From NCBI GenBank assembly GCA_024653945.1, contig JANLIT010000003.1, positions 30,097 through 94,096 on the forward strand: a stretch of DNA of 64,000 bases, read 5' to 3'. This stretch comes from Candidatus Campbellbacteria bacterium (GTDB taxonomy: Bacteria; Patescibacteriota; Minisyncoccia; Phycocordibacterales; EsbW-18). This document shows, one piece after another, positions 46 through 62,690 of this stretch (position 1 is the stretch's first letter; the number at the start of each line of letters is the position of its first letter). Made by a program: the position numbers and the translations under genes. A model generated the notes under the pieces. That model made no database searches. It saw nothing but the letters and a program-made list of their open reading frames with translations, and was not told the origin of the DNA.

Positions 46-267
46 AGCCACGTTTTAAGTCGCGTTTTAATTGACAGTACGCGACATGATTCTGCAGAAT
101 CAACTACGTGGCACGATTTCGCGGTTGTCGCGCCTTAGTCGACAGTTGCGCGACATGATTTTGAAAAACCACGTGCTATACTTAGTCACATAGAGTTCAT
201 TACCGGCTAATTTTAGAATTTCGCCACGTAACAATCGACGGTACGTGGCACGATTTCGCTAAATCGC
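46..267 (+). repeat. Start-codon-abutting repeat element, copy A (long, composite form with internal partial duplication); ends exactly at ATG of 268..804
   Basis: Shares cacgttttaa..gtacgcgacatgattctgcagaatcaac..agttgcgcgacatgattttg with copies at 823-940, 31332-31432 (inverted) and 39400-39495 (inverted). Proximal end cgatttcgctaaatcgcATG keeps the CGATTT/AAATCG hairpin seen before the ATG of 5 other genes. Confidence 0.7.
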
Positions 268-804
268 ATGACACCACTACATAAATCTATTCTTATCATT
301 GTACTTCTTGCCGTAGCAGGAATTGGTCTTGCTGCCTACACGAAGATACAACCACCAATAGACGATGGAGGTATTGCGTGTACTGCAGATGCAAAAATTT
401 GTCCTGATGGTTCAGGTGTTGGTCGCGTAGGCCCTAATTGTGAATTTGCTCCGTGTCCAGAACCTACTCCAAGTCCTGTGCCAATAAGTCAAGGGAGTGG
501 AGTACGAGGTATTGTGTTATCTGGTCCACAGTGTCCCGTCATGCAGGTGGGTGTTCCGTGTCCTGATAAGCCACTTCAGACATCACTTACTATTGATATG
601 CCAAACAGTGAGCGTCTTAGTCCTCTACGAAATTTTAGTTCAGACAAAGAAGGGAAGTTCAGCATTGCTATCTCACCAGGTACGTACACCATTAGTACTG
701 GAGCAGATTCTGGTTTGATGTTTCCATGCCACACAGAACCTTTTGTTGTATCAGCAAACGCCTACACAAACGTGACCGTATCCTGTGACACTGGTATCCG
801 ATAG
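268..804 (+). CDS. Hypothetical secreted/membrane-anchored protein with N-terminal TM helix and Cys-Pro motifs (CPxxxxC)
   Basis: 178-aa ORF with hydrophobic N-terminus SILIIVLLAVAGIGLAAY. Cys-rich motifs ICPDG, CPVMQVGVPCPD. Possible paralog of 62153..62629, which has the same upstream repeat. Confidence 0.5.
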   Translation: MTPLHKSILIIVLLAVAGIGLAAYTKIQPPIDDGGIACTADAKICPDGSGVGRVGPNCEFAPCPEPTPSPVPISQGSGVRGIVLSGPQCPVMQVGVPCPDKPLQTSLTIDMPNSERLSPLRNFSSDKEGKFSIAISPGTYTISTGADSGLMFPCHTEPFVVSANAYTNVTVSCDTGIR

Positions 805-822
805 ACCTTCTTTATGTAAAAT

Positions 823-940
823 TTTGTCGCGCTCTAGGTCACGTAACAAGTCACGTTTTAAGTCGCGTTTTAATTGACGGTACGCGACATGATTCCGCAG
901 AATCACGTACGTGACATGATTCCGCAGAATCACTTGCGTT
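823..940 (+). repeat. Repeat element copy G (5' part only, with internal 27-bp tandem duplication gtacg[c/t]gacatgattccgcagaatcac x2); not followed by a gene
   Basis: Sequence tcacgttttaagtcgcgttttaattgacggtacgcgacatgattccgcagaatcac almost identical to 46-104. Lacks the ..cgattttgtgaaatcgtATG end. Confidence 0.65.
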
Positions 941-1356
941 ATTTTTATTTTCATGTATAGTAGTAGCTGAAGGTCGCGGAGTGTCCTGCGCATGCATGGG
1001 CGTGCTGGTGGAACACAGAGTACGTGTGGAAGAACTCTTGGGGACCCTCCCAGTTGACGAGGAACTTGGACAATCCCTCTCAACTACCCTAGGTTCATCC
1101 TGCCCGAACCTGCTAGGACAGCAGACGGGTGCAATGGCAGGCACTTCGCGATCTTCGACCTTTGTCCCGCTCTTTTCGTTTTCTTTTCGCTCCTCTTCCA
1201 GGAGCACCTTCGGGTCCGTGCGAAATGTACGGGCCTTTTCTTATGGCGAGTTTTTTATTTGATGTGCTATTATTTTTGTACACAACTAAGGTGATGGATC
1301 CCGATAGTGATCAGGTGGCGATATAAAAAATATTTAAACTGCTTTAGACACACAGT

Positions 1357-2679
1357 ATGTCCAATAAAAAAAACAACGTGGTAGATGAAGCCACTATCGG
1401 GATGGAAAAAATTGTATCACTCTGTAAACGACGTGGTTTTATATTTCAGGGTTCTGAAATCTACGGCGGTCTCGCGGGGACATTTGACTACGGACCGTTG
1501 GGTGTGGAACTCAAAAACAACATCAAAGCACTCTGGTGGAAACGATTTATTCACGACCGAAACGATATGTACGGTGTAGATGCTGCTATTTTGATGAATC
1601 CGAAAGTGTGGGTGGCCTCAGGTCACGTGTCTGGATTCTCTGACCCACTTATTGAATGCACAAAGTGTAAACGACGTTTTCGCGCAGACCAGCTTAAAGA
1701 CCCAAAGAAATGCCCTGACTGTGGTGGAACACTTGGTGAAGAAAAACAATTCAATATGATGTTCACAACGCATGCGGGAACACAAGAAGATGAAAACTCA
1801 CTGACGTACTTACGTCCCGAAACTGCAGGAGGAATTTTTGTGAACTTCAAGAATGTGCTGGACTCACTCCATCCGAAGTTGCCGTTTGGTATCGGACAAA
1901 TTGGAAAAGCATTTAGAAACGAGATTGCTCCGCGTGATTTTCTTTTTCGTTCGCGAGAATTTGAACAAATGGAAGTTGAATATTTTGTTGCGCCTGAAAA
2001 CTGGGAAGGTGCGTTTGAGGAATGGAGAAAACAAATGCTCATGTGGACTGCAGAAATTGGTTTGAAAAATGAACATGTGCATGAACATGAGATTGCAAAA
2101 GAAGACCTAGCATTTTATTCAAAGCGAACAATTGATTTTGAATTTGATTATCCGTTTGGTCAGAAGGAACTCTATGGACTTGCATACCGCACCGACTATG
2201 ACCTCGGAGCTCACGCCGAGCACTCAAGCGTTGACCTCACCTATTTTGATGAAGACCTTAAAAAGCGCTTTATTCCACACGTTATTGAGCCGTCTCTTGG
2301 GGTGGATAGGACCGTCCTAGCCGTCTTATGCGACGCCTACAGAGAGGAAACCGTGGAAGGTGAGGTTCGGGTCGTTTTGGGCCTTTCGGCCTCAATTGCG
2401 CCCTACCACATGGCCGTACTACCCCTCATGAAGAAAGATGGTCTCTCTGAGAAAGCGCAAGAAGTATACAAAGAACTCTCTAAAAACCACCGAGTGCTCT
2501 ATGACGAATCTGGTTCAATAGGGAAGCGCTACCGACGACAAGATGAAATCGGAACACTGCTCTGTATTACTATTGACCACCAGACGCTTGAAGACGGCAC
2601 TATGACCGTTCGCGACCGCGACACCATGAAGCAGGAGCGCGTCACACTTGAAACTATTATTGCAATGCGCAGAACATAA
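1357..2679 (+). CDS. glyQS: Glycyl-tRNA synthetase (dimeric glyQS-type class II)
   Basis: 440 aa. N-terminal MEKIVSLCKRRGFIFQGSEIYGGLAGTFDYGPLGVELKNNIKALWW is typical of GlyRS2. Confidence 0.9.
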   Translation: MSNKKNNVVDEATIGMEKIVSLCKRRGFIFQGSEIYGGLAGTFDYGPLGVELKNNIKALWWKRFIHDRNDMYGVDAAILMNPKVWVASGHVSGFSDPLIECTKCKRRFRADQLKDPKKCPDCGGTLGEEKQFNMMFTTHAGTQEDENSLTYLRPETAGGIFVNFKNVLDSLHPKLPFGIGQIGKAFRNEIAPRDFLFRSREFEQMEVEYFVAPENWEGAFEEWRKQMLMWTAEIGLKNEHVHEHEIAKEDLAFYSKRTIDFEFDYPFGQKELYGLAYRTDYDLGAHAEHSSVDLTYFDEDLKKRFIPHVIEPSLGVDRTVLAVLCDAYREETVEGEVRVVLGLSASIAPYHMAVLPLMKKDGLSEKAQEVYKELSKNHRVLYDESGSIGKRYRRQDEIGTLLCITIDHQTLEDGTMTVRDRDTMKQERVTLETIIAMRRT

Positions 2680-2761
2680 GGATGTTTGGTTTTTTGTTGT
2701 AAAATCAAAACATCTGGAGCACAATAGCCCCAGACGAACCCTACATGAGAAGGGAGGGTAT

Positions 2762-3448
2762 ATGGACTCAAGCGCTGCGCGCGCCCAGTGGCAAGCGACG
2801 CGGGAGTCCAATACTCCCCACGTCGTCAGTCTGTTCTACGAACAGCTCACACAGAAGTTGACGGGTGCAGAACATGCACCGAGCTACGATGAAGGTGACC
2901 TCATCCTCTGGCTTCCCAAGGGGGCAACGTTTGGCCTTGAGGTCAAAGGCGGTAGTTCCAACCACGCCTTCCGCATCGAGGACGAACAACTCGCCCGTCA
3001 TCACGTTCTCGCCGATCGGTATCCGTACGATGGTTTCCTGTACTTTCTGTTCGGCTACACATCGTACGAACCACGCAAGGTGGAGAACGGCGACCGACGT
3101 CGGTGCATGGTACGCAACGCAATCCTCAGAGGCTTTGGACGGAGGTTTCTTATCGAGAGAACTCGTCATCTCTGGATTGTGCCCGTGCAACTCATTGAGA
3201 CGCTACACCAGATGGTGGGAATCGGGGCGTCCGCGTTCCCGACTGGGTCCGGCGTACGCATCCAACGACGCATGCTCCAGACCTTTGCGCATGAGACGCA
3301 GGAGGCGCAGAACAGCTGGAGCGTCCGCAACGGCACGGTAGACATCCTACCACCACGCGGACGGACAAGGCGCATCTCCTTTGGGGTTACTATGTTCTGC
3401 TATAACGGCATGCCTGACATTCCCGTCAGGGGTGCTGTATGGAAGTGA
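2762..3448 (+). CDS. PD-(D/E)xK nuclease-like protein (VRR-NUC-like)
   Basis: Motif GDLILWLPKGATFGLEVKGG (D..E-V-K) fits the PD-ExK/VRR-NUC core. SD aagggagggtatATG. The listed 2648 start overlaps glyQS, so the internal ATG at 2762 with SD is preferred. Confidence 0.5.
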   Translation: MDSSAARAQWQATRESNTPHVVSLFYEQLTQKLTGAEHAPSYDEGDLILWLPKGATFGLEVKGGSSNHAFRIEDEQLARHHVLADRYPYDGFLYFLFGYTSYEPRKVENGDRRRCMVRNAILRGFGRRFLIERTRHLWIVPVQLIETLHQMVGIGASAFPTGSGVRIQRRMLQTFAHETQEAQNSWSVRNGTVDILPPRGRTRRISFGVTMFCYNGMPDIPVRGAVWK

Positions 3449-3450
3449 CC

Positions 3451-3480
3451 GCACCCGCTTGTAAGGGGGTGCGTTTTTGT
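3451..3480 (+). terminator. Rho-independent terminator after nuclease gene
   Basis: gcacccgcttgtaagggggtgc followed by gttttt. Confidence 0.6.
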
Positions 3481-3618
3481 ATTTCGGAAATAATTATTTC
3501 ACAATCTGGTTACAATCTAGTCAATAATTCCTTATGCATAAAGGGCGTATACTCTGAAACAGATGCACCTCACAACACGAATACAACCCGTATCGCACCA
3601 CAACCAAGGAGATGGGAG

Positions 3619-6399: not shown

Positions 6400-6430
6400 A
6401 ACCTGCGTTTTCTGTTAAAGTATAGGGGTA

Positions 6431-24036: not shown

Positions 24037-24525
24037 CTACCCTGTCGGAGTTACGGTAAGTTTCGCCGCGACCTCCGTGGGTTTGTTGATGAGGTGGCTC
24101 ATGTTGGAGCCGGAGTAGAAGGGGCGGTGTTGATTCCTCCGCATCCACCTGGAGAGCTCGTAACACCGTTCCACCATGTCCTTGATGACCATCTCCCGAG
24201 AAGGGATGGTTGGCGGTACCCAGTTCTCCATCTTCTCCTTCCACCAGCGAACAAATGCGTTGTAGTTCGAATGCGCCAGGACGGCTTCAACATGCCGTTG
24301 CTGGTAAACCTTGACGATTTCCACGGCGGCCTGGCGAAAGATGGTGACGATCTCGTCGACACTCAGTATCTTCCACTCCTGCCCACCCCAGATGGGAACG
24401 TTGTGAAAGAAGCCGTTGAAGCGATCGATGACAGGGCGCAGCTGAACCAGTCCGTCGAAATCCACTTCTTCCACTTGGACGACGACGGGTCCCTGCTCGA
24501 TTTTTTTGTATCCGACATGCAACAT
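24037..24525 (-). CDS. Hypothetical 162-aa protein, GC-rich cassette
   Basis: SD gggaggtgtgccATG. Terminator downstream on the same strand. The opposite-strand ORF 24010..24585 has a composition typical of antisense. Confidence 0.45.
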   Translation of the reverse strand: MLHVGYKKIEQGPVVVQVEEVDFDGLVQLRPVIDRFNGFFHNVPIWGGQEWKILSVDEIVTIFRQAAVEIVKVYQQRHVEAVLAHSNYNAFVRWWKEKMENWVPPTIPSREMVIKDMVERCYELSRWMRRNQHRPFYSGSNMSHLINKPTEVAAKLTVTPTG

Positions 24526-24594: not shown

Positions 24595-24755
24595 TCACGA
24601 GCATCTGAGGCACGTTATACTACATATATATCATAGTTGTCAATCCCCATTCTACCGCCTACTTTCTACCAGCTACAAGCTACTTCTTTGTCCCCAGAAT
24701 ACGCACTCGTACTCCCCTTTTTTGTTCGAATGGGTCATTTCTCTCGTGTGCTACT

Positions 24756-31025: not shown

Positions 31026-31331
31026 TTACAGAATTATCGTTGTGGCAATAATGGCGAGAAATACAACAAGCCATCCGAGTGTTGCACAAAATAATATAAA
31101 TGCCTCGCGTTTCATTCCATCCAGATACAAGAGTATTGGTTTACCTAACACAAGCCCGCCAGTTATGGATGCTGAAACAACAAAGAGTAAAAGCATGAAA
31201 ATAGGGAGAGCAAAACCAGCCACGTTATCAATTCCTTGAGTATTGAATCCAAGCCACGCAATTCCAGACACATAGATACATACTCCGCCGGCATTCATAA
31301 AACTTCTCAGAAGATAGTTTGATGTTTTCAT
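31026..31331 (-). CDS. Hypothetical small membrane protein (3 TM); ATG abuts repeat copy B
   Basis: 101 aa hydrophobic ORF. Start codon directly follows ..gattttgtgaaatcgt. Confidence 0.5.
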   Translation of the reverse strand: MKTSNYLLRSFMNAGGVCIYVSGIAWLGFNTQGIDNVAGFALPIFMLLLFVVSASITGGLVLGKPILLYLDGMKREAFILFCATLGWLVVFLAIIATTIIL

Positions 31332-31432
31332 ACGATTTCACAAAATCGCGTCGCGCAATTGTTGATTCTGCAGAATCATGTCACGTACTGTCCATTAAAA
31401 CGTGACCTAAAGCGCGACGTATATTGTGATGG
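31332..31432 (-). repeat. Start-codon-abutting repeat element, copy B (long form incl. GATTCTGCAGAATC palindrome)
   Basis: The reverse complement reads cgtcgcgctttaggtcacgttttaatggacagtacgtgacatgattctgcagaatcaacaattgcgcgacgcgattttgtgaaatcgtATG. It aligns with copy A at 58-104 and 147-169. Confidence 0.75.
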
Positions 31433-31546
31433 TTATGGTTAGGTTTAGTGTAGCACCTTGAAACCACCCTGTCCTGAGCAATTTTCAAGTGTCTGAGCCC
31501 ATGTCTAAAAATGATATACTGGCATCATATACATAACCCACACACC

Positions 31547-34514: not shown

Positions 34515-35738
34515 TTAATGCAACCTTAATGTTTTTTTCCTAAACGTAGAGATTGCAAAACGATGTGCCTCATTGTTGGCGAGAAGAATTTCCTTTCCAT
34601 ACTCTGTGATGTGTTCCTTATTTCCAAGCAATTTTTCAGGTCGGTGTCGTTCGTTTTTTGTAACCGCAACAACAGGAATTTGATAGCCAAAGGTTTTCAA
34701 CACTTTTTCTGCGGTATTCTTTTGAGCAATACCACCATCCACAACAATAAGTTTCGGCAACTGCCATTCGTTGTGATTGAGTCGTCGTTCTAAAATTTCA
34801 GCAAGTCCTGCGGTGTCCCCTTTTTGATGTGTTTTAATAGTGAATGTTCGATATTCTTTTTTGTTGGATTCCCCATTTTCCACAACCGTCATCACTCCCA
34901 CTCGAGCCGTTCCAGAAATATGCGCCACATCATATGCTTCAATACGGAACGAGTTTGTAGCTTGTAGCTTGTAGCTTGTAGCTTTTAAAAGAGACACGTC
35001 CTGAATATGTTGCAGAGCGTACAGACGACGTTTCATTTCAGACGCCATTTCAAATTGTTTTGTCCTAGCATACGCCTTCATGTCACGCGTAATGGCACGG
35101 ATAAGTTGTTTCTTTTTCCCCTCAAAAAAGAGCACAATATGCCGAATTGTTTTTTTGTACTCACGTGGAGTGATATTCTTCGATTGGGGTGAAAGTCCAA
35201 TCTCTTCATACAAACGAGACGCTCGTCTTCTGTCCGTCGCAAGAGGTGCATCTGTCTTTCCGCGATACGGAAATATTTTACGTATAATTTTGAGCGCTTC
35301 CTGTAACTGTGTCCCATATGGAAACGGTCCAAATGTTTTTTGATATTTGATATTTAATATTTGATTTTGCAACAGTTCTCGGTGGCGTATCGTAAAGACA
35401 CGAGGAAATTGCTCAAAGGTGATTACGACGTAATTAAAGCTGGTGTCACTTTTTTCTTTTGCGTTGTACTTCGGCTGGTGCTTTTTAATAAGCACCGCTT
35501 CAAGGATAAGCGCCTCCAATACCGAGTCGGTTTTCTCCACACGAACACCTGTTGCCTCCTCAAGCATTTTTACAATGCGCGGTCCACGTGTCTCTGTAAT
35601 ATCAGACAAGAAATAACTTTTCACCCGAGAACGGAGCGATGTTGCCTTTCCAATGTACAAAATCTTCTTTCCTTTTAAGAAGAAGTACACGCCCGGCATG
35701 TCGGGAAGTGTGTGTATTTTAGAATCAATGAATTTCAT
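34515..35738 (-). CDS. uvrC: Excinuclease ABC subunit C, compact form (GIY-YIG + UvrBC + RNase H-like endonuclease domain, no C-terminal HhH pair)
   Basis: PGVYFFLKGKKILYIGKATSLRSRVKSYF (GIY-YIG), FEMASEMKRRLYALQHI (UvrBC), RIEAYDVAHISG... endonuclease domain. 407 aa. Confidence 0.75.
   Translation of the reverse strand: MKFIDSKIHTLPDMPGVYFFLKGKKILYIGKATSLRSRVKSYFLSDITETRGPRIVKMLEEATGVRVEKTDSVLEALILEAVLIKKHQPKYNAKEKSDTSFNYVVITFEQFPRVFTIRHRELLQNQILNIKYQKTFGPFPYGTQLQEALKIIRKIFPYRGKTDAPLATDRRRASRLYEEIGLSPQSKNITPREYKKTIRHIVLFFEGKKKQLIRAITRDMKAYARTKQFEMASEMKRRLYALQHIQDVSLLKATSYKLQATNSFRIEAYDVAHISGTARVGVMTVVENGESNKKEYRTFTIKTHQKGDTAGLAEILERRLNHNEWQLPKLIVVDGGIAQKNTAEKVLKTFGYQIPVVAVTKNERHRPEKLLGNKEHITEYGKEILLANNEAHRFAISTFRKKTLRLH
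34955..34982. repeat. Tandem microsatellite (GTAGCTTG)x~3.5 inside uvrC coding sequence (encodes ATSYKLQAT)
   Basis: Direct reading: tttgtagcttgtagcttgtagcttgtagc. Confidence 0.7.
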
Positions 35739-36738: not shown

Positions 36739-39399
36739 TTATTCTTTGGACTTTGTACTTTGAACTTTGTGCTTACGCAATGCTTTGTGTAGATACTTTC
36801 CTGTGTGTGTACCAGAATCCGCAACTTCTTCTGGTGTTCCGTGAGCAACAACCTTCCCGCCTTCATTTCCTCCGTCAGGGCCTATATCTATAATGTAATC
36901 CGCACTCTTCACAATGTCCATGTTGTGCTCAATGAGGATAACGGAGTTTCCTTTTGTGGTAAGCATTTGGAGTATTTCTATCAGTTTTCGCACATCTTCG
37001 TAATGAAGCCCAATTGTCGGCTCATCAAGGAGATAAAGTGTTTTTTGTACGTGTGTGCGGTAGAGTTCAGAAGAAATTTTGACACGCTGTGATTCCCCAC
37101 CTGAGAGCGTTGTGGCCGATTGGCCGAGTTGTAAATACCCAAGACCTACCTCATTGAGTGTGTTGAGTCGGTCAAATATTGCAGGAATATCATTAAAAAA
37201 TGCGAGAGCTTCCTCAACGGTCATTGAAAGCACGTCGTGGATGCTCTTGTTTCGATATTCAATTTCTAGTGTTTCGCGCATAAACCGTTTGCCATGACAC
37301 ACATCACACCCAACATACACCGTCGGCAAAAAGTGCATCTCAACCGCAATCTCACCTTTTCCTTCACATGCTTCACATCGCCCACCTTTTACATTGAATG
37401 AAAAACGACTTGCTTTCCAGCCACGAGCACGAGCTTCTGCTGTTGTGGCGAACATGTCACGAATATGGGTGAATGCGCCAGTGTATGTTGCTGGATTACT
37501 GCGTGATGTGCGTCCAATCGGCGACTGGTCAATCATAATCGTTCGAGACACATACTCTGTTCCTGTGATAGACCCACAATTAAACGTTTGCGCGGTGCGA
37601 TATTTTCTCTCAAGGCGCGCCTGCAAATTTTTGTACAAAATCTCATACATGAACGACGATTTTCCGGAACCAGAAACACCCGTGACAACAATAAACTTGC
37701 CGAGTGGAATATCCACATTCATATTTTTTATATTGAAGATGTTTCCTCCGCGAATTTTAATCGTTCCCTTATCCGCCGTACGGCGCATCTCGGGAAGTTC
37801 AATTTGTTTTTCTCCGCGCAAATAGGCAAGCGTGAGTGATTTTCCTTTCACTGGAGGTTCTTTTGCGGTCAATAATTCTTCCAAATCTCCGGCAACGACG
37901 ATTTTCCCTCCATGAATACCGGCACCGGGCCCAATGTCCACAATATAATCGGATGAAAAAATGGTGTCCTCATCATGTTCAACAATAATCACGGTATTTC
38001 CAAGGTCGCGAAGATTGTGGAGTGTTCTGATGAGACGATCGTTATCATGAGCGTGAAGTCCTATTGTTGGTTCATCAAGCACATAGAGAGCGCCCACAAG
38101 TCCTGAGCCGAGTTGGGAAGCAAGTCTGATGCGTTGTGCTTCCCCACCTGAAAGTGTGTTTGCACGACGGTCCAGTGTCAGATACCCAATCCCCACATTC
38201 TGCATAAATTTGAGGCGGTCAATAATTTCACGCACCACCACATTTGAGATTTCTTTTTCTTTCTCCGTCAACGGCAAATCAACAAAAAATGCATGGGCGT
38301 CATCTACAGACAAGGCCGTGAGCTCAACAATATTTTTTTCATGAATACGCACGTGGAGTGCTTCGGGACGAAGACGTGCACCGTTACACACTAAACACGG
38401 GTCGTTAACAAAAAAGTCCTGCGTTCCTAACCCATTACATTCTGCACATGCACCATACGGACTGTTGAATGAAAATAAACGTGGTTCAATTTCTGGGTAC
38501 GAGTAGCCGTCATTTGGACATGAAAACTTGGACGACATAAGCACGCCGATGTCGTTTGTTCCTTTCTTTGTAAACTCATCAATGCCAGAAAAGACAATGC
38601 GCACAAGTCCTTGTGCTTCATGAAGCGAACGTTCAAGTGACTCACGCAACCGTTCAACAGCATTATCTTTCGATTCAACAAAATCAACCAACGGAATACG
38701 GTCAATGAGAATATCAATGTCGTGCTTTTTGTGTTTCTCTAGAATAATTTGCTCACGGAGTTTTTTACGCACACCATCCACCAACACCTCCGTATAGCCA
38801 CGATTGAGAAAGTCATACAACTGTTGGTAGTACTCTCCTTTTCGTCCACGTACAATAGGAGAAAGAATTTCGAGTGCAGGACCACCTTGTGCATCAGTAA
38901 TTGCTTCGGAGAGATTTTTTTGCGTACGTTTCTTGAGACCAGCCGATGCTTTAATAATTTTTTCAAGAATAAAATGCTGAATTTCTTCGTTCGTCAAACG
39001 TTTAATCGGTTCACCACACACCAAACAGTGCGGAATACCAATGCGCGCGTACAAAATACGAAGATAATCGGAAATTTCCGTAATGGTTGCAACAGTTGAA
39101 CGTGGATTATTTGAACGAGATTTTTGGTCAATTGAAATTGCAGGAGAAAGCCCGACGATTTCATCAACATCTGGTTTTGGCATTTGGCTGATAAATTGTC
39201 GCGCGTATGCGGACAGTGATTCAACGTATCGACGTTGGCCTTCAGCAAAAATGGTATCAAACGCAAGGGATGATTTTCCGGAGCCAGACAAACCAGTAAA
39301 CACCACCATTTTGTTGCGTGGCATTTCAACCGTAATATTTTTAAGGTTGTGGGTTCGTGCGCCTTTGACGATTATTTTATCGCTATCTGGTTTTTTCAT
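36739..39399 (-). CDS. uvrA: Excinuclease ABC subunit A
   Basis: Two ABC ATPase modules ([10 protein letters not shown].., GVSGSGKSS..), LSGGE signatures, zinc-finger cysteines. 886 aa. ATG abuts repeat copy C. Confidence 0.9.
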
Positions 39400-39495
39400 T
39401 TGATTTCACAAAATCACGTCGCGCAAGTGATTCTGCGGAATTATGTCGCGTACCGTCCACTAAGACGCGACCTTGAGGCGCGACGTATTCTTCAT
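39400..39495 (-). repeat. Start-codon-abutting repeat element, copy C (long form)
   Basis: The reverse complement reads tacgtcgcgcctcaaggtcgcgtcttagtggacggtacgcgacataattccgcagaatcacttgcgcgacgtgattttgtgaaatcaaATG. The second hairpin is TGATTT/AAATCA, a compensatory change relative to CGATTT/AAATCG. Confidence 0.75.
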
Positions 39496-39645
39496 TACCT
39501 GCTTTGTCCCACACCATGGACAGTGCCATTCTTTTTTGGTAGTTGGTGCATCACCAACTGACCACCACTTATTGCACACTCCACATCGAAAATGTGAAAG
39601 ACGCTCTACCGAACGAAGTCCTTGTTGTTGTGTTTTTTTCTTCAT
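39460..39645 (-). CDS. Small zinc-ribbon protein (CxxC...CxxC), 3' end overlapped by repeat copy C
   Basis: MKKKTQQQGLRSVERLSHFRCGVCNKWWSVGDAPTTKKEWHCPWCGTKQV... Confidence 0.35.
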   Translation of the reverse strand: MKKKTQQQGLRSVERLSHFRCGVCNKWWSVGDAPTTKKEWHCPWCGTKQVMKNTSRLKVAS

Positions 39646-39694: not shown

Positions 39695-39760
39695 TATAGC
39701 AGAAAAGGGATAAGTAGGAAGTAGTAGGTAGAATGTAGTAAGTAGTAGGTAGAAAGCAAA
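39695..39760. repeat. GTAG-rich degenerate tandem repeat tract (AGTAGTAGGTAGAA x2 plus variants)
   Basis: Direct reading: aagtaggaagtagtaggtagaatgtagtaagtagtaggtagaaagc. Confidence 0.5.
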
Positions 39761-39832: not shown

Positions 39833-40360
39833 TTACTTCGTGGCAGCCTTGCGCCCCCGCTTGGAGGAGTCGATGACAGTCTTGCCCCGCACGACGCTCA
39901 CTCGCGTGAGCCGTTTCTGGGTCTCGCCGTCCTTCAGGATTGCCTTCGCCTCGGCTGAGGTGAAGAGCAAGAGGCTCGTGCTGTCGGGAGGGATGATCTT
40001 GACGGCAGGAGCGTCCCCCACGAAGCTGCCGGTGGCCACCTTGACCTCGGTCGACTTCGACTTCTCGGGCTGCTTCTCGTTGTCCTCGATAGCAACAACC
40101 TGAAGGATGGCGGCGATCATGGCCTTGTCACCCTTGATGAGGTTGTAGTCGACGAGGTTCTTGTCCTCGCTCTTCGGCTTCGCGTTGAAGTTGCGGAGAA
40201 CCGTCTCCGCATCATGGAAGCGTGCTTTGGCTTCCGTGAAGTTCGCCGTGGGGAACTTCACCTCGTACTCGGCGAGTCGGCCCTCCAGCACGTTCAGGCG
40301 AGAGACGAGGATGTCGCGGACCGAAATCTGAATCGACTGCTTCTGAAGCTTGGTGTTCAT
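39833..40360 (-). CDS. Hypothetical 175-aa protein, GC-rich cassette
   Basis: SD gggagaaagaaccATG. GC-rich. Own terminator. Confidence 0.45.
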   Translation of the reverse strand: MNTKLQKQSIQISVRDILVSRLNVLEGRLAEYEVKFPTANFTEAKARFHDAETVLRNFNAKPKSEDKNLVDYNLIKGDKAMIAAILQVVAIEDNEKQPEKSKSTEVKVATGSFVGDAPAVKIIPPDSTSLLLFTSAEAKAILKDGETQKRLTRVSVVRGKTVIDSSKRGRKAATK

Positions 40361-40906: not shown

Positions 40907-40917
40907 TAAACAAACTT

Positions 40918-40959
40918 TTTTCCATTATAAAACGCGTACGCGTTTTATAATGGAAAAAT
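40918..40959. promoter_or_regulatory. 42-bp perfect palindrome (20-bp arms TTTTTCCATTATAAAACGCG-ta-CGCGTTTTATAATGGAAAAA); candidate bidirectional terminator or protein-binding site
   Basis: Direct reading. Flanked by T/A runs on both sides. Confidence 0.6.
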
Positions 40960-41064: not shown

Positions 41065-41418
41065 ATGGCAAAGAAGCGACGTTTTGCAACGCAGGACCAG
41101 CGTACGAGGGGGGAGATGTTGAATGACCTCTCCCGACAAGGGGAAGAGCTTCGAGATCTTACCAAGGAGAGGGACGAACTTCTCGGCGAGAGACACGTCC
41201 TTCGCCAGGCGAGAGCTGACCTCTTCTTGAACTTTGGGACCGCCAAGCTGGATGTCGCCAGTCTCTCGGAAGAGAAGGCGCACCTTCTGGCGAGAGTCGA
41301 GAACCTCCTAGGGAACGCCGAGGAGATGAGGAAGAGGCACGACGGAGAAAACGAGCGCCATCAGGCCTTCGTCGACGGACTTTCTCTGGCACTCAGAGTC
41401 GTCACCGGCAAGGTGTGA
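41065..41418 (+). CDS. Hypothetical 117-aa charged coiled-coil protein, GC-rich cassette
   Basis: SD agaggaggtttgcgATG. GC-rich. Terminator downstream. Confidence 0.4.
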   Translation: MAKKRRFATQDQRTRGEMLNDLSRQGEELRDLTKERDELLGERHVLRQARADLFLNFGTAKLDVASLSEEKAHLLARVENLLGNAEEMRKRHDGENERHQAFVDGLSLALRVVTGKV

Positions 41419-50482: not shown

Positions 50483-51109
50483 CTATGTACTAAACATTTT
50501 TGGAAATACTTTTGTAAGTAGTGTTGTACTGTGACCAGAGAGATTAAAGAGAATGACAAACATAAAAAGAAACAGTGAGACATGTACGTTAAGGAAGCTC
50601 ACCAAAATTGCAATGCACGACATGTACACTGGAACGAGAATACGCAATGTGCTGTGTTGAAGTTGCACAGGATCCATTTCCATATTGCGTATTGTTGGAG
50701 ATGAAATAATATACTGCCGCATCCAATACAACAACAAACCAATACAAATAATATTTAAACCATAGAGGGTGATGGCCGCCTGTGTAAAGAAATATTTTCC
50801 TAAAAGAAGCGTTGAAAATGGAACGAGCCCAACCAGTAGAAAGAAGAATGCATTAATAGTTGTCAGTTTTGCATCAATATTTTGTGCAAGAACCGAGGCA
50901 ATAGAGTGGTGACCGCGCCAATAGGTAAAGAGGAGGAGAAAACTGAGTGAATAACTGAGGATATGTGGTGTAAGAGAGACAACCGCATACCACACAGAGG
51001 CATTGCCCACTTCCCCAACAAGTGCTGGAACACGAATCTCGAGTGCTAGAAGCGTCATAACAATTGCAAAAATTCCGTCAGCAAGATTATCAAAGCGTGT
51101 TTGTTTCAT
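50483..51109 (-). CDS. TMEM175/DUF1211 family membrane protein (putative K+ channel); ATG abuts repeat copy D
   Basis: RFDNLADGIFAIVMTLLALE matches the RxxxFSDGVFAIxxTLLVLE signature. 6 TM helices. Confidence 0.65.
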   Translation of the reverse strand: MKQTRFDNLADGIFAIVMTLLALEIRVPALVGEVGNASVWYAVVSLTPHILSYSLSFLLLFTYWRGHHSIASVLAQNIDAKLTTINAFFFLLVGLVPFSTLLLGKYFFTQAAITLYGLNIICIGLLLYWMRQYIISSPTIRNMEMDPVQLQHSTLRILVPVYMSCIAILVSFLNVHVSLFLFMFVILFNLSGHSTTLLTKVFPKMFST

Positions 51110-51175
51110 ACGATTTCACAAAATCGCACCGCGCAATTGAAACATGACACAAGAGCGCGGTGGTATTTGTATTAC
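51110..51175 (-). repeat. Start-codon-abutting repeat element, copy D (short form; hairpin 1 is CACCGCGC/GCGCGGTG, a compensatory variant)
   Basis: The reverse complement reads ccaccgcgctcttgtgtcatgtttcaattgcgcggtgcgattttgtgaaatcgtATG. Confidence 0.75.
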
Positions 51176-51331
51176 ATACATACAGTATACCCTGCGGTAT
51201 GAATAGTTTCTATGTCTCCTATCCACTTTTCATACAATAGATGCCCAACAATGGCAACCGAGACAAAATCACGCTTGGAGGTGGTGGCCCCGAAGCGCGA
51301 TTTTGTCGTGCGTACATTTTTTGATTTCAAA

Positions 51332-56423: not shown

Positions 56424-56430
56424 GAGAATA

Positions 56431-57711
56431 TCATTTTAATGCAATAATAAGATCTGATACATTTGACCCAGTGTTACCTGTTATAATCTGGGACGAAACT
56501 TTTTCAAAAAAGAGAAAGGAATTGTGGGACGCAAGGTGCTCTTCGATTGAAATACCTTGCTCGTGTGCTCTCCTTTGGGCAACGGCGTCACCTATCGCAC
56601 CCGCGATATCTGTATTATCACGCCCATCAGACGCACATGCAATAAGCGTCTCTCCATCACGAATATCCAAAAACCCGGCGAGAACAACCTCCTGATTTCG
56701 TCCGCCAACTCCGTGAGGACCTTCTGATATAACCGTTGTTTCACCACCAAACAATAGAACTGTTTTTTCTAGAGCCGTGTGCAGGCGATTTAGGGTTTCC
56801 TGCGCAATGTTGTGCGCTTCACCAGTGAGTGTTGTGGTAACAATCTCTGCCAAATACCCACGTGCCACGGCCTCTTTCTTCATCGCCTCAAGCGCAACTC
56901 TGTTTGAAACAACAACGATGTTGAGAGTGTGTTCAAAAACCTCTTTTTCTTTTGGTGTTTCAATAAGATATTCCGACACATGCTCAATAGTATATTTTTT
57001 AAGAATTGTCCGTGCGTCGATAGCTGTTGTTGTATCCAACACGGTCGGTCCAGATGCAATAAACGAAACATCATCACCGGGCACATCAGAAAAAATAAGT
57101 GCGACAAGTGTTGCGGGATGCGCATGCTGTGCCAAACCCCCACCACGGGCCGTTGAGAGATGTTTTCGCACTGTGTTCATTTCTTGAATCGTTGCTCCCT
57201 CATCCATAAGTGATGTAATAAGACGTGCCTCATCGCTAACCATCATGGACTGTGGTGGTTGAGAAAGAAGTGTTGAACCACCGCCTGAAATAACTACCAA
57301 AACAAGATCCCGTGATGTACACGAATCTAAAAATGTTAATAGCTTTGCAGTTGCATCAACATTTGCCTGTGTAGGAAGCGGATGAGTGCCAACAAAAAAA
57401 GAAACTCTCCCTGTTTGAGAGGTACCGGGCACAATATCTATAGCCATTCCGTCAGTCAATACGTCTCCTAGCACTTCTTCAAAAGTACGCACGGCCTCAA
57501 CAGAGCATTTACCGACCCCTACAACACGCACACGATCAAAGTCAGAGAGTGTATATAAACCATCAGCAGCATGAAGCACTCCCCCTTCTATAAAAACGGT
57601 TTTCTGAATTACCGCTCGTGTATCAATCGCAGAGAGTCCGGCGTCTAAAATTGAAAGTGCGTCGGTTCGCTGTGGTGTGGTCGCTAATTGCTCAAAATTC
57701 TTTATTTTCAT
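56431..57711 (-). CDS. Glycerate kinase (MOFRL family, GckA/TtuD-like); ATG abuts repeat copy E
   Basis: GVGKCSVEAV, ISGGGSTLL, DGRDNTD MOFRL motifs. 426 aa. Confidence 0.75.
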   Translation of the reverse strand: MKIKNFEQLATTPQRTDALSILDAGLSAIDTRAVIQKTVFIEGGVLHAADGLYTLSDFDRVRVVGVGKCSVEAVRTFEEVLGDVLTDGMAIDIVPGTSQTGRVSFFVGTHPLPTQANVDATAKLLTFLDSCTSRDLVLVVISGGGSTLLSQPPQSMMVSDEARLITSLMDEGATIQEMNTVRKHLSTARGGGLAQHAHPATLVALIFSDVPGDDVSFIASGPTVLDTTTAIDARTILKKYTIEHVSEYLIETPKEKEVFEHTLNIVVVSNRVALEAMKKEAVARGYLAEIVTTTLTGEAHNIAQETLNRLHTALEKTVLLFGGETTVISEGPHGVGGRNQEVVLAGFLDIRDGETLIACASDGRDNTDIAGAIGDAVAQRRAHEQGISIEEHLASHNSFLFFEKVSSQIITGNTGSNVSDLIIALK

Positions 57712-57770
57712 GCGATTTCACAAAATCGCGTCGCGCAAGTGTCAATTAAAGCGCGACGAATACTTGTGTG
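57712..57770 (-). repeat. Start-codon-abutting repeat element, copy E (short form)
   Basis: The reverse complement reads tcgtcgcgctttaattgacacttgcgcgacgcgattttgtgaaatcgcATG. Confidence 0.75.
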
Positions 57771-57835
57771 TACTCTCAGTGTACCAAGCAGGATCTAAAA
57801 ATACCACGGATAGCTGTATGACCTCATATAATAGA

Positions 57836-57870: not shown

Positions 57871-57877
57871 ACGACGC

Positions 57878-58075
57878 TTATGCGCGTGATACGTTTGTTG
57901 CTGCAGGGCCCTTCTCCCCGTCTACAACATCAAAGGAGACAACATCGCCAACCTTCAATTCTTCAAACGTAACGCCGTTCAATTCCTTAGAGTGGAAGAA
58001 AAGGTCCTTTGTTTCGCCTTCGCGAGAAATGAATCCAAATCCTCGATCTGTAAGAGTTTTGATAACTCCGTTCAT
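57878..58075 (-). CDS. cspA: Cold-shock protein (CspA family)
   Basis: MNGVIKTLTDRGFGFISREGETKDLFFHSKEL (RNP1/RNP2). 65 aa. Confidence 0.9.
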   Translation of the reverse strand: MNGVIKTLTDRGFGFISREGETKDLFFHSKELNGVTFEELKVGDVVSFDVVDGEKGPAATNVSRA

Positions 58076-58238
58076 ATTGATTTGATATATTTAAGACTAC
58101 TCAATAGCGAGAAACTCGACTTTATTTCTGCATCTCGCACCAGACTAGTGTATCTTATGTCAACACTTTTTGCAACGCCTTCTGTGGCTCGTCAATATGG
58201 CCTTATTTCAAGCCATAGTTAGTCATCTTGACCTGTGG

Positions 58239-59759: not shown

Positions 59760-59915
59760 AAAGATTGCGATGACCAGTGTCTCGCCAGTTCTTTATGAGG
59801 TCTGTAATAAAAATAGTGACACCTCGCGTGTGGGACAAAGCCCTACACAAAACTAATGAGAATAGTTACCTGAGGTCACTATATCCTAGATACTCACCTT
59901 TGTCAACAAACACAC

Positions 59916-61706
59916 CTACCGACGAGCTTTTGCTCGATCTAGTTCAGAAAGATATTGTTTGCGAATGCGAACGTTTTTGGGAGTAATTTCTAAATATTCG
60001 TCTTCATTGATGACCTCTAGACCACGCTCAATACTGATTTCCAGTGGTGGAAAAAGAATAATTGCCTCATCGGTACCCGACGCGCGCATGTTGGTGAGTT
60101 GTTTTCCTTTAGTTGGGTTCACTGGCATTTCTTCTCCTTTTGACGTGTTTCCAACAACCATTCCTTCGTACACCTCAACTCCAGGACCAATGTAGAGTAC
60201 TCCTCGATCTTGTAAACCCCACAATGAAAAGGCAACTGATTTTCCTGATACCATAGAAATCATAGAACCAACGGCCTTTCGTTTTATTTCTCCAGCATAC
60301 GGTTTGAACCCGAGTACATGAGAGGCAAGAATTCCCTCCCCTTTTGTATCAATAACAAACTGGTTTCGATACCCAAGAAGACCCCGTGTTGGACCTTCAA
60401 AAATAATTCGGGAGGTAAGACCTCCGTGTTCTTGAAGTATACCTTTCAATATGAAACCTCTATTACTCAAACGATCAATAACACTTCCTTGAAATTCATT
60501 CGGTACATCAATGACCACTTCTTCAAACGGTTCACTTTTTACACCGTTTTCTTCACGAATGATGACGTGTGGTTGAGATACTTGTACTTCATATCCCGCA
60601 CGTCGCATATTTTCAAGAAGAATCGCAATATGCAATTCTCCACGTCCATATACTTTAAAACTATCATTTCCAGAAAAATCAATTTTCAATCCAACATTCA
60701 CCTCAATTTCTCGTTCCAAGTATTCACGTATTTGTCGTGACGTCACATATTGGCCGTCTTTACCCGCAAAAGGAGAATTATTGACCAAAAATTGCAATAC
60801 AATTGTTGGCTCATCAACGGCAATTGCTGGAAGTGGTCCAGCGTCAGCGTCTGAGGTGATAGTTTCTCCAATATCAATATCAGGAAGACCTGCAACAATC
60901 ACAATGTCACCTGCACGAGCACTTTTTGCTTCAACTCGAGCAAGACCCTCAAAGGTAAACACGGAGGTAATCTTACCTGCACGTGTTGTCCCATCTGGTT
61001 TTTTAACAAACACATTCATTCCTGGCGCAATTTCACCTTCATAAATACGTGCAACGGCCATACGCCCAAGGAAATTGTCGTATGCAAGGTTAAATGACTG
61101 AAGACGAAGTGGGTGTTGGTTTTTTTCAGGAGACGATGCTGGTTGCACATGTTCAAGAATAACATCAAGAAGTGGCATTAAATCTTGAGAATCATCCTCT
61201 AAATTTTTCTTTGCAATTCCTGCTCGTCCAATCGCATACACAACAGGAAAATCAAGCTGGTTTTCTGCTGCGCCGAGCTCCATAAACAATTCCAGCACTT
61301 CATCGTGACAACGAGCTGGGTCAGCCGCTGGTTTATCAATTTTGTTAATAACGACAATTGGCTTGAGTCCGAGCTCGAGAGATTTCTTAAGTACAAAACG
61401 TGTCTGAGGCATTGGACCCTCCTGCGCATCAACAACAAGAAGCACGCAGTCAATGGAGCGCAACACTCGTTCAACCTCAGAACCAAAGTCGGCGTGTCCT
61501 GGTGTGTCAACAATGTTCACTTTTGTACCCTTGTACATCAGTGATGCATTTTTTGCATAAATAGTAATACCACGCTCTAGTTCAAGTGTATTTGAGTCCA
61601 TGGAGACACCCTCTTTGGTGGCACCTGTTTGGCGCATGAGTGCGTCGGTAAGAGTTGTCTTGCCGTGGTCCACGTGTGCAATTATTGCGATATTTCTGAT
61701 TTCCAT
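59916..61706 (-). CDS. typA: Translational GTPase TypA/BipA
   Basis: [29 protein letters not shown]. 596 aa. EF-G-like domain order without domain IV. Confidence 0.85.
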
Positions 61707-61824
61707 ATGAAAGTGGGTATTCTTTAGCGGGATAAAAAAATCCCGCCCGGCGGGTACTGCTACACTATACGCTCTTTACACCAATGCGTCAAAGCACCCT
61801 TTCTGTGGGTCCTTTGATAGAAAC

Positions 61825-61855
61825 AAAAATACCCCGCCAAAGGCGGGGTATTTTT
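61825..61855. terminator. Bidirectional rho-independent terminator
   Basis: aaaaaTACCCCGCCaaaGGCGGGGTAttttt. Confidence 0.75.
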
Positions 61856-61861
61856 AGTTTG

Positions 61862-62062
61862 TTATTTGAGTGCTGCCGCGTCTTCCTTAGAGAGGAATTT
61901 GAACATTCCTGTTCCGCAGACCGCACACTTACCTTTTGCGGAATATTTTTTTGCTCCACCCTTTCCTTCCTTTTCCAAGACATTTATATCCGTCATTACT
62001 TGCATTTGGTGCTCCTTACCTTTTTGTCGACACTTCATGCAAAGTGCTTTAAGTTCTGCCAT
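61862..62062 (-). CDS. Small C4 zinc-ribbon protein (DUF5679-like)
   Basis: MAELKALCMKCRQKGKEHQMQVMTDINVLEKEGKGGAKKYSAKGKCAVCGTGMFKFL (CxxC..CxxCG). Start set at the internal ATG. Confidence 0.55.
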   Translation of the reverse strand: MAELKALCMKCRQKGKEHQMQVMTDINVLEKEGKGGAKKYSAKGKCAVCGTGMFKFLSKEDAAALK

Positions 62063-62152
62063 GTAATTGTTATTAGTGACTAATACTTCCCCAATAGTAC
62101 CATAAAACCCATAAAACGCAAAACACCACTTTATTGGTTCTGTATACACTAC

Positions 62153-62629
62153 CTACATGTTCTCCGGCAAGGGGTTGATACCAAGGATAGGAGCTATATA
62201 GAAGGTCACTACATACTCTTGTGGGTTGATACTAATGGTCGATTTTGGAGTGGGTGTAACCGAGAGTAGTGAGACGCGGTAGCCCGCAAAAGTGACCGGT
62301 TGCTCATTTTCTACCATGGTTACTGTTGTTTTTTCAGTTCCACTTTGGAGTGTGACATCAACAGTAACTGCGCCTGCCCAAATACACTGTACGTCGGTAG
62401 GACAACGGCTATCTGATACCACCTTATTGAGTGTCAGGGAAAGCCCCGCACCTTCCCCAGTCTTTCCTACCCCAAGCGCAACTTCTGCAGGTGCGCGAAC
62501 TCGTCCGTCATCTGTATTTTGATTTTCATCTTCAGGAGTAATTGGTTCTTGTGTACGCGAAGAAAAAATCACATACGACACTCCAGAAAGAATTACGAGG
62601 CCAATAACAATGTAAAATATTTTTTTCAT
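62153..62629 (-). CDS. Hypothetical secreted protein (N-terminal TM, CPxDVQC motif); ATG abuts repeat copy F
   Basis: 158 aa. SDSRCPTDVQCIWAGAVTVDV resembles the CPxxxxC motif of 268..804. Confidence 0.5.
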   Translation of the reverse strand: MKKIFYIVIGLVILSGVSYVIFSSRTQEPITPEDENQNTDDGRVRAPAEVALGVGKTGEGAGLSLTLNKVVSDSRCPTDVQCIWAGAVTVDVTLQSGTEKTTVTMVENEQPVTFAGYRVSLLSVTPTPKSTISINPQEYVVTFYIAPILGINPLPENM

Positions 62630-62690
62630 ACGATTTCACAAAATCGTGTCGCGCAACTGTCCGCTAAAGCGCGACGTTAATTTTATTTTT
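62630..62690 (-). repeat. Start-codon-abutting repeat element, copy F (short form)
   Basis: The reverse complement reads acgtcgcgctttagcggacagttgcgcgacacgattttgtgaaatcgtATG. Confidence 0.75.

Follow-up and report, generated by a model that had tools for sequence, protein, structure and literature searches.

Structured interspersed repeats abutting start codons in a Campbellbacteria genome and its relatives: a mobile hairpin family possibly co-opted as an mRNA leader

Short repeats that fold into hairpins and lie scattered among unrelated genes are known from several bacterial lineages. The RAYT-associated REP, BIME and REPIN sequences of Proteobacteria are short, GC-rich, extragenic hairpins that occur in many copies, form composite arrays, are co-transcribed and preserve their stems by compensatory change, and in these respects they are resembled by the repeat family described here, which lies in a 64-kb stretch of the genome of a Candidatus Campbellbacteria bacterium (contig JANLIT010000003.1; the whole analysed stretch is called the window below). 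The BOX elements of Streptococcus pneumoniae and the Correia elements of Neisseria are modular, stable repeats that sit in the leaders of unrelated genes and alter their expression, the mRNA hairpins of the latter being substrates of RNase III. Palindrome-associated transposable elements (PATEs), which derive from IS200/IS605, end in hairpins, lack terminal inverted repeats and target duplications and insert in a set orientation guided by a short flank, features that recur at least in part in the present family. In the marine Beggiatoaceae, the lineage-restricted TAACTGA repeats stand no more than a few nucleotides ahead of start codons in a set of unrelated genes, in leaders without a canonical ribosome-binding site, and are found in other contexts in other taxa (PMC4679880). 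Literature searches returned no description of our element, a double hairpin that abuts the ATG of unrelated genes, and the TAACTGA repeats are its nearest analogue.

An earlier note on this DNA had listed seven loci, and a covariance model trained on 15 units and run over the window recovers exactly these and nothing further. The loci were right, but the extents first given to them were too wide; we use the tighter boundaries 48-267 (copy A) and 826-938 (copy G) on the plus strand, and 31332-31419, 39400-39485, 51110-51162, 57712-57758 and 62630-62676 (copies B to F) on the minus strand. Within the window the 26-mer TTGCGCGACGCGATTTTGTGAAATCG has five minus-strand matches at up to two mismatches against none expected, and the hairpin-2 core 11 matches at up to three mismatches against 1.2 expected. 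The element is non-coding, modular and 47-90 nt long. A unit consists, in this order, of hairpin 1 with a loop of about 14 nt (consensus YTTAATNGACAGT), a linker of 0-2 nt, and hairpin 2. Hairpin 1 has 7-8 bp and is GC-rich, stable and variable in sequence; hairpin 2 has 6-7 bp and is AU-rich, with arms YGATTY/RAATCR and a 4-nt loop, and is weak, at about -4 to -6 kcal/mol (-4.3 to -6 as computed). It comes in two subtypes, a terminal one, GATTTTGTGAAATC, which is always the last module, and an internal one, GATTCYGCAGAATC. The long forms (copies B, C and module 1 of copy A) are made of a complete unit nested within the hairpin-1 loop of another, and what had been described as an added internal perfect palindrome is really the internal hairpin 2 of such a nested unit.

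RNA folding recovers hairpin 1 in every folded copy; in most of them it also yields hairpin 2 or, where units are nested, the three-way junction. The AUG never pairs in the predicted folds. In some minimum-free-energy folds GATTTTGT also pairs over a long range with the 5' flank (ACAAAT-like); we discount this helix, the flank being native leader, present also at a locus that lacks the element (L027, below), and not conserved among loci. Taken as a whole, we are highly confident that the copies belong to one family of structured interspersed repeats of Campbellbacteria-type Patescibacteria, sited in the mRNA leader and abutting the ATG.

All five minus-strand copies pass from hairpin 2 through a single base (t, a, t, c and t in copies B to F) straight into an ATG, at 31331, 39399, 51109, 57711 and 62629. 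Together with copy A, whose ATG is at 268, this bears out the proposal of six fusions to start codons, although the quoted 26-mer occurs in only five of them, copy A having another hairpin 1, and the preceding base is not confined to T or C, as copy C has an A. The identities proposed for the genes concerned agree with Pfam, which gives UvrA, TMEM175 and a DUF4147/MOFRL glycerate kinase, with a cold-shock (CSD) protein upstream of copy E. The UvrA and glycerate-kinase proteins match those of an NCBI metagenome-assembled genome of Candidatus Campbellbacteria at 100% identity.

The family was extended to other genomes, whose loci are labelled L001 to L031, by scanning a single genome of each species and JGI metagenomes for the motif and by examining the neighbourhoods of homologous proteins. 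The metagenome-assembled genome (MAG) CAZVYH01 contains three copies (L001, L005 and L006) and two soil-type samples contain four loci (L009, L010, L012 and L016), while the protein neighbourhoods added L022, L026 (two copies, in the complete genome CP064977), L027 and L030/L031. The other motif matches were set aside as false: in most of them the motif is coding sequence for a Tat-signal-like peptide (MSLSRRDFVKS...) of Sphingomonas-type genomes, and those left over arose by chance in GC-rich genomes. BLAST of a long form against phage and plasmid collections gave no match, and scans of IMG/VR with the terminal and internal motifs gave no copies. Nor is this a family known to Rfam, whether as riboswitch, leader or small RNA: no copy reaches a gathering threshold, which only two tRNAs in the window pass, and at E <= 1 nothing overlaps any copy. 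The module had been called specific to its lineage, a claim in need of qualification: the carriers are several Campbellbacteria/Paceibacteria-type genomes, and higher-GC relatives carry the family in another context, away from start codons. CAZVYH01 is labelled 'uncultured Candidatus Saccharibacteria', and its cspA-glycerate kinase locus is syntenic with, and in non-coding DNA nearly identical to, that of Campbellbacteria; going by this sequence, the label is probably wrong.

With orthologues counted once, there are 12 independent start-codon loci: copies A to F of the window, L001, L005, and two each in L009 and L026. The distance from hairpin 2 to the ATG is exactly 1 nt at 10 of these, 3 nt at one and 7 nt at another, and a binomial estimate for 10 exact spacings in 12, at 1/64 per locus, is about 6e-17. 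Spacings of 1 nt outside the window precede a pyridine-nucleotide-disulfide oxidoreductase (TrxB-like) gene in L001, a signal-peptide protein gene in L005, a cupredoxin-like protein gene in L009 and a DUF3850/ASCH gene at position 20579 of L026; L006 and L022, which are orthologues of copy E, have the same spacing. The 3-nt spacer is found at position 9264 of L026, where hairpin 1 is degenerate, and the 7-nt spacer at the second copy of L009, before a PLD-family gene. Both L026 copies are intercistronic, and one of them has the exact 1-nt junction. Other genes of the window show a hairpin abutting the ATG only weakly and in 3 of 47 cases. The data support the view that a module, duplicated or mobile, has been placed where mRNA leaders end, and its start-codon junction is far beyond chance and holds outside the window as well as within it.

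That these ATGs are true starts follows from relatives without the element, in which the N-termini of the kinase (MKIKNF) and of UvrA are unchanged, and the start of the L009 PLD gene is fixed by homologues of 343-344 residues. In the annotation of L009 (3004-4101, P0241) the PLD start has been placed upstream of the element, which is translated through to give 365 residues, 21 more than the 343-344 of most of the closest homologues. The element can therefore mislead gene callers, with N-terminal over-extension in automatic annotation as the result. The coding sequences that follow it are themselves distinctive. In the window the element stands before 5 of the 12 genes that start ATGAAA and before 1 of the 41 others (p = 0.0015), and positions +4 to +15 of the element genes are A-rich (0.63 against 0.37, p = 0.001) and also unstructured.

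Selection on the pairing was assessed on 21 units of 8 genomes or contigs, from the window and from L001, L005, L006, L009, L010, L012, L016, L022, L026 and L027. Standard pairs occupy 93.1% of the cells, against 83% with shuffled partners and 20-49% when the partners are slid by 1-3 columns; changes on both sides occur at 9 of the 14 pairs, in 42 cells, and the observed covariation score was reached by none of 500 shuffles. RNAalifold, unaided, arrived at the same two helices, with 8 of 13 pairs compensated. The compensatory variants first pointed out, CACCGCGC/GCGCGGTG in hairpin 1 of copy D and TGATTT/AAATCA in hairpin 2 of copy C, are both verified, and the relatives add CCGTGT/ACACGG, GTCGTG/CACGAC, CGGTTC/GAACCG, CGATG/CATCG and TAATTT/AAATTA. 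Hairpin 1 of copy A is wholly different (GCCACGT/ACGTGGC) and therefore constitutes further covariation. The claim that structure is kept by compensatory change is accordingly supported, and the pairing data show selection on a fold and not on a palindromic protein-binding sequence.

The cells without Watson-Crick pairs number 13, all of them transitions, five giving G.U on the sense strand and eight A.C. All eight A.C cells fall in units that are internal, degenerate or not followed by an ATG; read by eye, the ATG-adjacent terminal units that were counted have no A.C mismatch and in one case a G.U, and the outer stems of nested copies are perfect. In 8 of 10 copies the base at -1 could form a pair with the one just before hairpin 2 (two G-C, two A-U and four G.U, again read by eye), which is only suggestive.

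Comparison of orthologous sites shows that the element comes and goes in a leader whose promoter stays. Upstream of the glycerate-kinase gene the window and L006 carry the short form and L022 the nested form, while L027, L028, L021 and L023 are empty; the kinases of L027 and L022 are 88% identical, yet the first site is empty and the second filled. A promoter-like box, cacttggTACACT, is present at this locus in all alleles except that of the most distant, L023 (gcTACAAT), and the leaders of the empty alleles L021, L027 and L028 are 27-28 nt long, unstructured and without a Shine-Dalgarno (SD) sequence. As the box is kept in empty alleles, the promoter belongs to the locus itself, and the element is a part of the leader. 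In CP064977, which has no element at uvrA, a zinc-ribbon open reading frame (ORF) ends TAG-gt-ATG and is directly coupled to uvrA, while in the window an 86-nt element (39400-39485) intervenes between the two, so that uvrA must initiate behind the fold. In the two copies that CP064977 does have, the element begins 15 and 26 nt past the stop codon of the gene before it. The 5' side has lost 5 nt at the uvrA site and about 16 nt at the glycerate-kinase site; replacement by the element might account for this, but so can unrelated indels. The zinc-ribbon mini-ORF, of about 58-61 residues, is conserved directly upstream of uvrA (window 39460-39645 on the minus strand; L026 9822-9998), and in the window its C-terminal tail has been rewritten by the insertion.

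Filled sites can be strikingly stable. Copy E is identical at 56 of 56 positions between the window and L006, while conserved four-fold-type codon third positions of the adjacent gene are 38% identical (69 of 180) and the leader between the -10 box and the copy has diverged by substitutions and indels. Copy D is inherited by descent, for its locus-specific stem CACCGCGC/GCGCGGTG is common to the window and L027; the loops of the two differ, each being a 'canonical' form of the family, and this suggests exchange between copies. The family consensus, both loops included, is the same in several species. Conservation like that of copies E and D is not what would be expected of individual non-autonomous selfish copies.

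These leaders belong to a genome with no SD signal. SD-like motifs precede 6 of 53 genes of the window, which is the background level (9% of random positions), and the statement that native genes here lack SD sequences is thereby confirmed. The related idea that many genes are leaderless is weakened, as only 5 of 53 genes have a TANNNT box at the leaderless spacing of exactly 6 nt from the ATG; an approximate list of TAYACT/TAnnnT boxes at 6 nt (in one case 5 nt) comprises 27862, 28946(-), 33834(-), 21315(-) and 63489(-). Bacteria of the candidate phyla radiation (CPR) have reduced ribosomes. They retain YchF, said to promote the translation of leaderless mRNAs, and also RNase J, RNase III and PNPase (PMC12641178).

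For the window genome and its close relatives, the best-supported reading of the sequence data is that fold and spacing are under selection at start codons, in a family that started as, and maybe still is, a mobile or recombining intergenic repeat. On balance we are evenly divided as to whether the whole of this account holds, host role included: a structured repeat of REP or MITE (miniature inverted-repeat transposable element) type, turned by co-option into a leader that directly adjoins start codons, in a genome without SD sequences. Such a leader might operate as follows. The terminal unit would be set in sense orientation with its hairpin 2 ending 1 nt before the start codon. Transcribed either between cistrons or from the promoter that the gene itself has upstream, it would form the last part of the mRNA leader. 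Hairpin 1 would clamp the leader and hairpin 2 would end at -1/-2, leaving the AUG and the A-rich, unstructured coding start exposed at the 3' foot of the fold, which would mark the 5' boundary of a ribosome landing site without SD pairing. The AUG could then be read directly, like the 5'-terminal AUG of a leaderless mRNA; alternatively, an endonuclease would first cleave the U/A-rich single strand where hairpin 2 ends, producing a leaderless AUG. Mimicry of a tRNA minihelix for RNase Z would suit a cut that follows a single unpaired base, but it does not fit a hairpin 2 of just 6-7 bp and a hairpin 1 that stacks at the wrong end.

We put forward either specific mechanism, leaderless-like reading or processing, only tentatively. 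The same caution attaches to the wider and rather speculative proposal of a portable SD-independent initiation module of CPR bacteria, spread by a mobile-element mechanism, at which the AUG is used in leaderless fashion or a nuclease cut releases leaderless mRNA. If true, this would be a new device for SD-independent initiation or leader removal, plausible but unproven. The element also offers a handle on start-codon choice by CPR ribosomes and predicts specific 5' ends, toeprints and reporter effects.

Several considerations weigh against a host role. A helix that ends at -1/-2 would normally hinder binding of the 30S subunit. The association with ATGAAA fits an insertion-site preference equally as well as a functional need. 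There is no excess of G.U over A.C among the imperfect pairs (5 against 8), and RNA, as opposed to single-stranded DNA, is therefore not directly indicated as the selected fold. Identity across species could stem from constraint by a transposition machinery or from gene conversion. Transcription through the element, its folding in vivo, its processing and its effect on initiation are all inferred from sequence only, and the sample of related genomes is small, at about 30 units from fragmentary genomes. Lastly, the family is not at start codons in the higher-GC relatives (L010, L012/L016 and L030/L031), and can therefore persist without such a role. There it forms intergenic arrays of diversified units; none of the five independent loci is at a start codon, four being antisense to their neighbours and one in sense orientation just past a stop codon, and the A-run of an intrinsic terminator directly adjoins the unit at its hairpin-2 end. 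In L016 one gene is preceded by a recognisable SD of AAGGAG type. This second context means that an origin as a mobile element at the DNA level must enter the explanation, and the arrays show that the family is at root an intergenic repeat, mobile or recombining, that favours A-rich sequence on its 3' side. The contexts are not cleanly divided by lineage, since L009, whose PLD protein is closest to higher-GC organisms, has two start-codon copies. The element may thus represent a mobile structured repeat in two states, one selfish (mostly antisense, beside terminators) and one apparently co-opted (as a start-codon leader).

The most serious rival, which we hold to be unlikely without being negligible, sees a purely selfish, hairpin-guided mobile element, either an IS200/IS605-derived PATE or REP/RAYT-like, whose single-stranded DNA hairpins are recognised by a transposase encoded elsewhere and which has no function for the host; insertion would be oriented by a short target, ...TTTCAT-N| (equivalent to N|ATGAAA), and in a compact genome, where no SD is present to be displaced, nearly all viable targets would be start codons. 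Presence and absence at orthologous sites (L022 filled, L027 empty), short and nested forms at one site, self-nesting, truncated copies and the strict orientation relative to the flank are all as this explanation would have them; so are the other landing context in relatives, by a terminator A-run and mostly antisense, the enrichment of ATGAAA at occupied starts, and the lack of strand bias between G.U and A.C. The target, however, seems too short. On the opposite strand CAT+N precedes 10 of 12 copies, six of them having TTTCAT+N; the invariant junction is just CAT/ATG plus one base and only 3 nt are invariant (the flank in other relatives is TTTTT). Four of the 10 occupied starts are not ATGAAA, and of the 73 ATGAAA sites in the window only 12 are starts. 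A target of 3 nt cannot explain exclusive use of start codons. Furthermore, selfish copies should decay, yet copy E is unchanged at a distance of synonymous saturation, and the ATG-fused terminal units are free of the A.C mismatches that other units have. The flanks, read by eye, show neither terminal inverted repeats nor a target duplication, and those window proteins (64 kb of genome) that were scanned with Pfam have no transposase, RAYT or integrase domain, the proteins that do match Pfam being those of housekeeping genes.

The family does not qualify as a MITE, the ends CGTCGCGC... and ...GAAATCG not being inverted repeats and the flanks of 10 copies sharing no duplication. Like REP or REPIN sequences the family has palindromic hairpins, both supported by covariation, but the alignment contains no GT(A/G)G head and the units are co-oriented and nested, not inverted doublets. 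An integron attC site is excluded by the lack of a GTTRRRY core in the alignment and by the dispersal of the copies among syntenic housekeeping genes.

We consider it rather improbable that the element is the operator of an mRNA regulon, in which the hairpins would bind one RNA-binding protein, or form a thermo-labile gate, and so repress or time the translation of dispersed genes, the long forms with several GATTCYGCAGAATC hairpins binding several copies of the protein. The loops tttaattgacactt and tgtg are conserved between species as well as the stems, identical hairpin-2 modules are repeated in the long forms, and hairpin 2, being weak and AU-rich, would be easily melted or clamped. The downstream genes, however, have no function in common, their products being UvrA, a K+ channel, glycerate kinase, a TrxB-like oxidoreductase, a cupredoxin, PLD and small secreted proteins; occlusion by a protein needs no fixed 1-nt spacing, no predicted fold pairs the AUG, and no candidate binding protein has been identified. 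An RNA thermometer of the fourU or ROSE type is set aside by the lack of an SD and by the unpaired AUG of the predicted folds, although the weak hairpin 2 might still allow a gate.

Least probable by far is a DNA-level transcription signal (mobile promoter, transcription-factor operator, or leader terminator/attenuator), for although the hairpin-1 loop is often TTGACA, hairpin 2 and GATTCTGCAGAATC are palindromic and TTTT follows hairpin 1 at 3 nt, there is no -10-like hexamer at a workable distance from TTGACA or the ATG, the native promoter persists in empty alleles, copies lie inside operons, a sequence-reading dimeric factor would not tolerate the compensatory stem variation within one genome, the upstream genes have canonical terminators of their own, and a terminator right before uvrA and other needed genes would do harm. 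The promoter option raised by the earlier note is contradicted at several points: the box cacttggTACACT stands in the empty L021, L027 and L028, the short distances from the stop codons in CP064977 leave no room, and no usable -10 lies inside the element, where the loop TTGACA is followed at 17 nt by TGTGAA and a promoter scan finds none. Its other contention, that the element is not merely a terminator, holds, as cspA, the poly-Asp gene and the ORF 39833-40360 each have a separate terminator; as an intrinsic terminator the element would also have a loop of 14 nt or of a whole nested unit and a U-run beginning only 3 nt past the stem.

The individual copies illustrate how the modules combine. 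Copy A, on the plus strand, comprises two modules and a terminal unit. Its module 1 (48-122) has outer arms CCACGT (48-53) and ACGTGG (106-111) followed by a truncated hairpin 2 (114-122), and encloses an inner unit with hairpin 1 GTCGCG (59-64)/CGCGAC (80-85) and hairpin 2 GATTCTGCAGAATC (88-101), which the model matches at 57-103 with 70.7 bits. In module 2 (127-170; model match 125-172, 61 bits) hairpin 1 is GTCGCGC (127-133)/GCGCGAC (148-154) and hairpin 2 (157-170) is the degenerate GATTTTGAAAAACC, with one A.C mismatch. A -10-like box, TATACT (gtgcTATACT, 177-182), marks a putative promoter 41 nt upstream of the terminal unit, and boxes of the same TGnTAYACT type lie upstream of the other copies. 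The terminal unit (223-267; model match 221-267, 59.1 bits) pairs GCCACGT (223-229) with ACGTGGC (243-249) in hairpin 1 and CGATTT (251-256) with AAATCG (261-266) around the loop cgct in hairpin 2, ending CGATTTcgctAAATCG, then c (267) and the ATG; its RNA fold contains both hairpins. The gene that follows (268-804) encodes a signal-peptide-like protein of 178 residues with no Pfam family.

Copy G, also on the plus strand, is a truncated copy with neither terminal hairpin 2 nor ATG or gene. It has stacked 5' arms, GTCGCGC (826-832), GTCACG (838-843 and 850-855) and GTCGCG (862-867), then two modules of a 3' arm plus GATTCCGCAGAATC (883-904 and 910-931), and its outermost 3' arm is broken off after GCG (936-938); the model matches it at 860-906 (70.3 bits) and 909-933. 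Its end coincides with the start of a GC-rich block of about 300 nt (960-1260) that has no Pfam or Rfam match, and that block may have been inserted into the copy at the cost of the terminal hairpin 2 and of the junction with the gene that follows, which starts at 1357 and encodes a class II aminoacyl-tRNA synthetase.

Copies B and C, on the minus strand like those that follow, are both nested, with outer hairpin 1 CGTCGCGC/GCGCGACG. In copy B the outer arms lie at 31419-31412 and 31356-31349, the inner unit at 31408-31362 and hairpin 2 at 31348-31333, followed by t (31332) and the ATG; the predicted three-way fold has z = -4.8. It precedes the gene of a small membrane-type protein of 101 residues (31026-31331), and a -10-like TACACT at 31447-31452 is its putative promoter. 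In copy C the outer arms are at 39485-39478 and 39424-39417, the inner unit at 39473-39427 and the variant hairpin 2 at 39416-39401, followed by a (39400) and the ATG of uvrA (36739-39399; Pfam UvrA_inter and ABC_tran). The zinc-ribbon ORF upstream (CxxC...CxxC, 61 residues, 39460-39645) has its stop codon, TAG (39462-39460), inside the copy.

Copy D has a hairpin 1 with arms at 51162-51155 and 51134-51127 around a 20-nt loop, and a hairpin 2 at 51126-51111, then t and the ATG of a TMEM175-family channel gene (50483-51109; PF06736, 1.6e-19). Its sequence suggests a formerly nested copy that lost the part between two CAATT repeats by deletion. The putative -10 box TATACT (51184-51189) is conserved in L027. 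Within this leader (51167-51189) an ATG-TAA start-stop pair comes 6 nt after TATACT, in leaderless position; it is probably fortuitous, since the ATG of the L027 orthologue is only 2 nt from the box.

The remaining two copies are short. In copy E, hairpin 1 joins CGTCGCGC (57758-57751) and GCGCGACG (57736-57729) around the loop tttaattgacactt, and hairpin 2 (57728-57713) is followed by c and the ATG of the glycerate-kinase-family gene (DUF4147/MOFRL, 56431-57711); the -10-like TACACT of this operon (57778-57783) is conserved in relatives whether or not they have the element. In copy F, hairpin 1 joins CGTCGCGC (62676-62669) and GCGCGAC (62654-62648), and hairpin 2 (62646-62631) is followed by t and the ATG of a gene (62153-62629) for a signal-peptide-like, secreted-type protein of 158 residues with no Pfam family; a putative -10 box, TATACT, lies at 62716-62721. 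The gene directly upstream (62833-63489, minus strand) ends in a long poly-Asp tract of GAT/GAC repeats.

A second, unrelated repeat is present in the window, in the form of CTACNNN runs of period 7 (nine matches against 0.08 expected) at 24652-24683 (+), 34957-34981 (-), 39714-39752 (-) and about 955-966. The first, third and last of these adjoin GC-rich blocks containing ORFs with good SD sequences, for example 24037-24525(-), 39833-40360(-), 41065-41418(+) and 960-1260; in an SD-less genome of about 44% GC such blocks look like foreign cassettes. Between two GC-rich, cassette-like ORFs there is also a perfect 42-bp palindrome without spacer, TTTTTCCATTATAAAACGCGT|ACGCGTTTTATAATGGAAAAA (40917-40958).

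Set against the systems with which we began, the element is in each case similar in some respects and distinct in others. The REP, BIME and REPIN sequences have a GTAG-type head, usually lie 3' of genes and form inverted doublets, whereas the element has two different hairpins in fixed order, is co-oriented and nested, and its terminal unit abuts start codons, with no RAYT in the window. There is no sequence relation to BOX or Correia elements, which are not positioned to the nucleotide at start codons, and the terminal inverted repeats and TA duplication of the latter are lacking in our family. The PATEs are distinguished by their flank, which here is only CAT+N with the hairpin 1 nt away, by the lack of TnpA in the window, and by the conservation of our copies at orthologous sites. 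A comparison can also be made with the punctuation of mitochondrial transcripts by tRNAs, in which a folded RNA lies directly 5' of the AUG and its removal gives a leaderless mRNA. The geometry is that proposed here, as a mechanistic analogy only: the element is not tRNA-like and has no tRNA or Rfam match, neither RNase Z nor RNase P would recognise a hairpin as short as 6-7 bp, and cleavage is a proposal. Were the version with a nuclease cut true, the element would be a bacterial counterpart of such punctuation. Finally, the TAACTGA repeats are unstructured tandem heptamers, in contrast to a covarying nested double hairpin with a fixed 1-nt junction (PMC4679880). Interspersed hairpin repeats in mRNAs are thus already known from the REP/BIME, BOX and Correia elements, and the TAACTGA repeats provide a parallel for a repeat that hugs the start codon (PMC4679880); what is new is a covarying and nestable double hairpin, its junction to the AUG at a single nucleotide, its occurrence in CPR bacteria, and the coexistence of 'selfish' and 'co-opted' contexts in one family.

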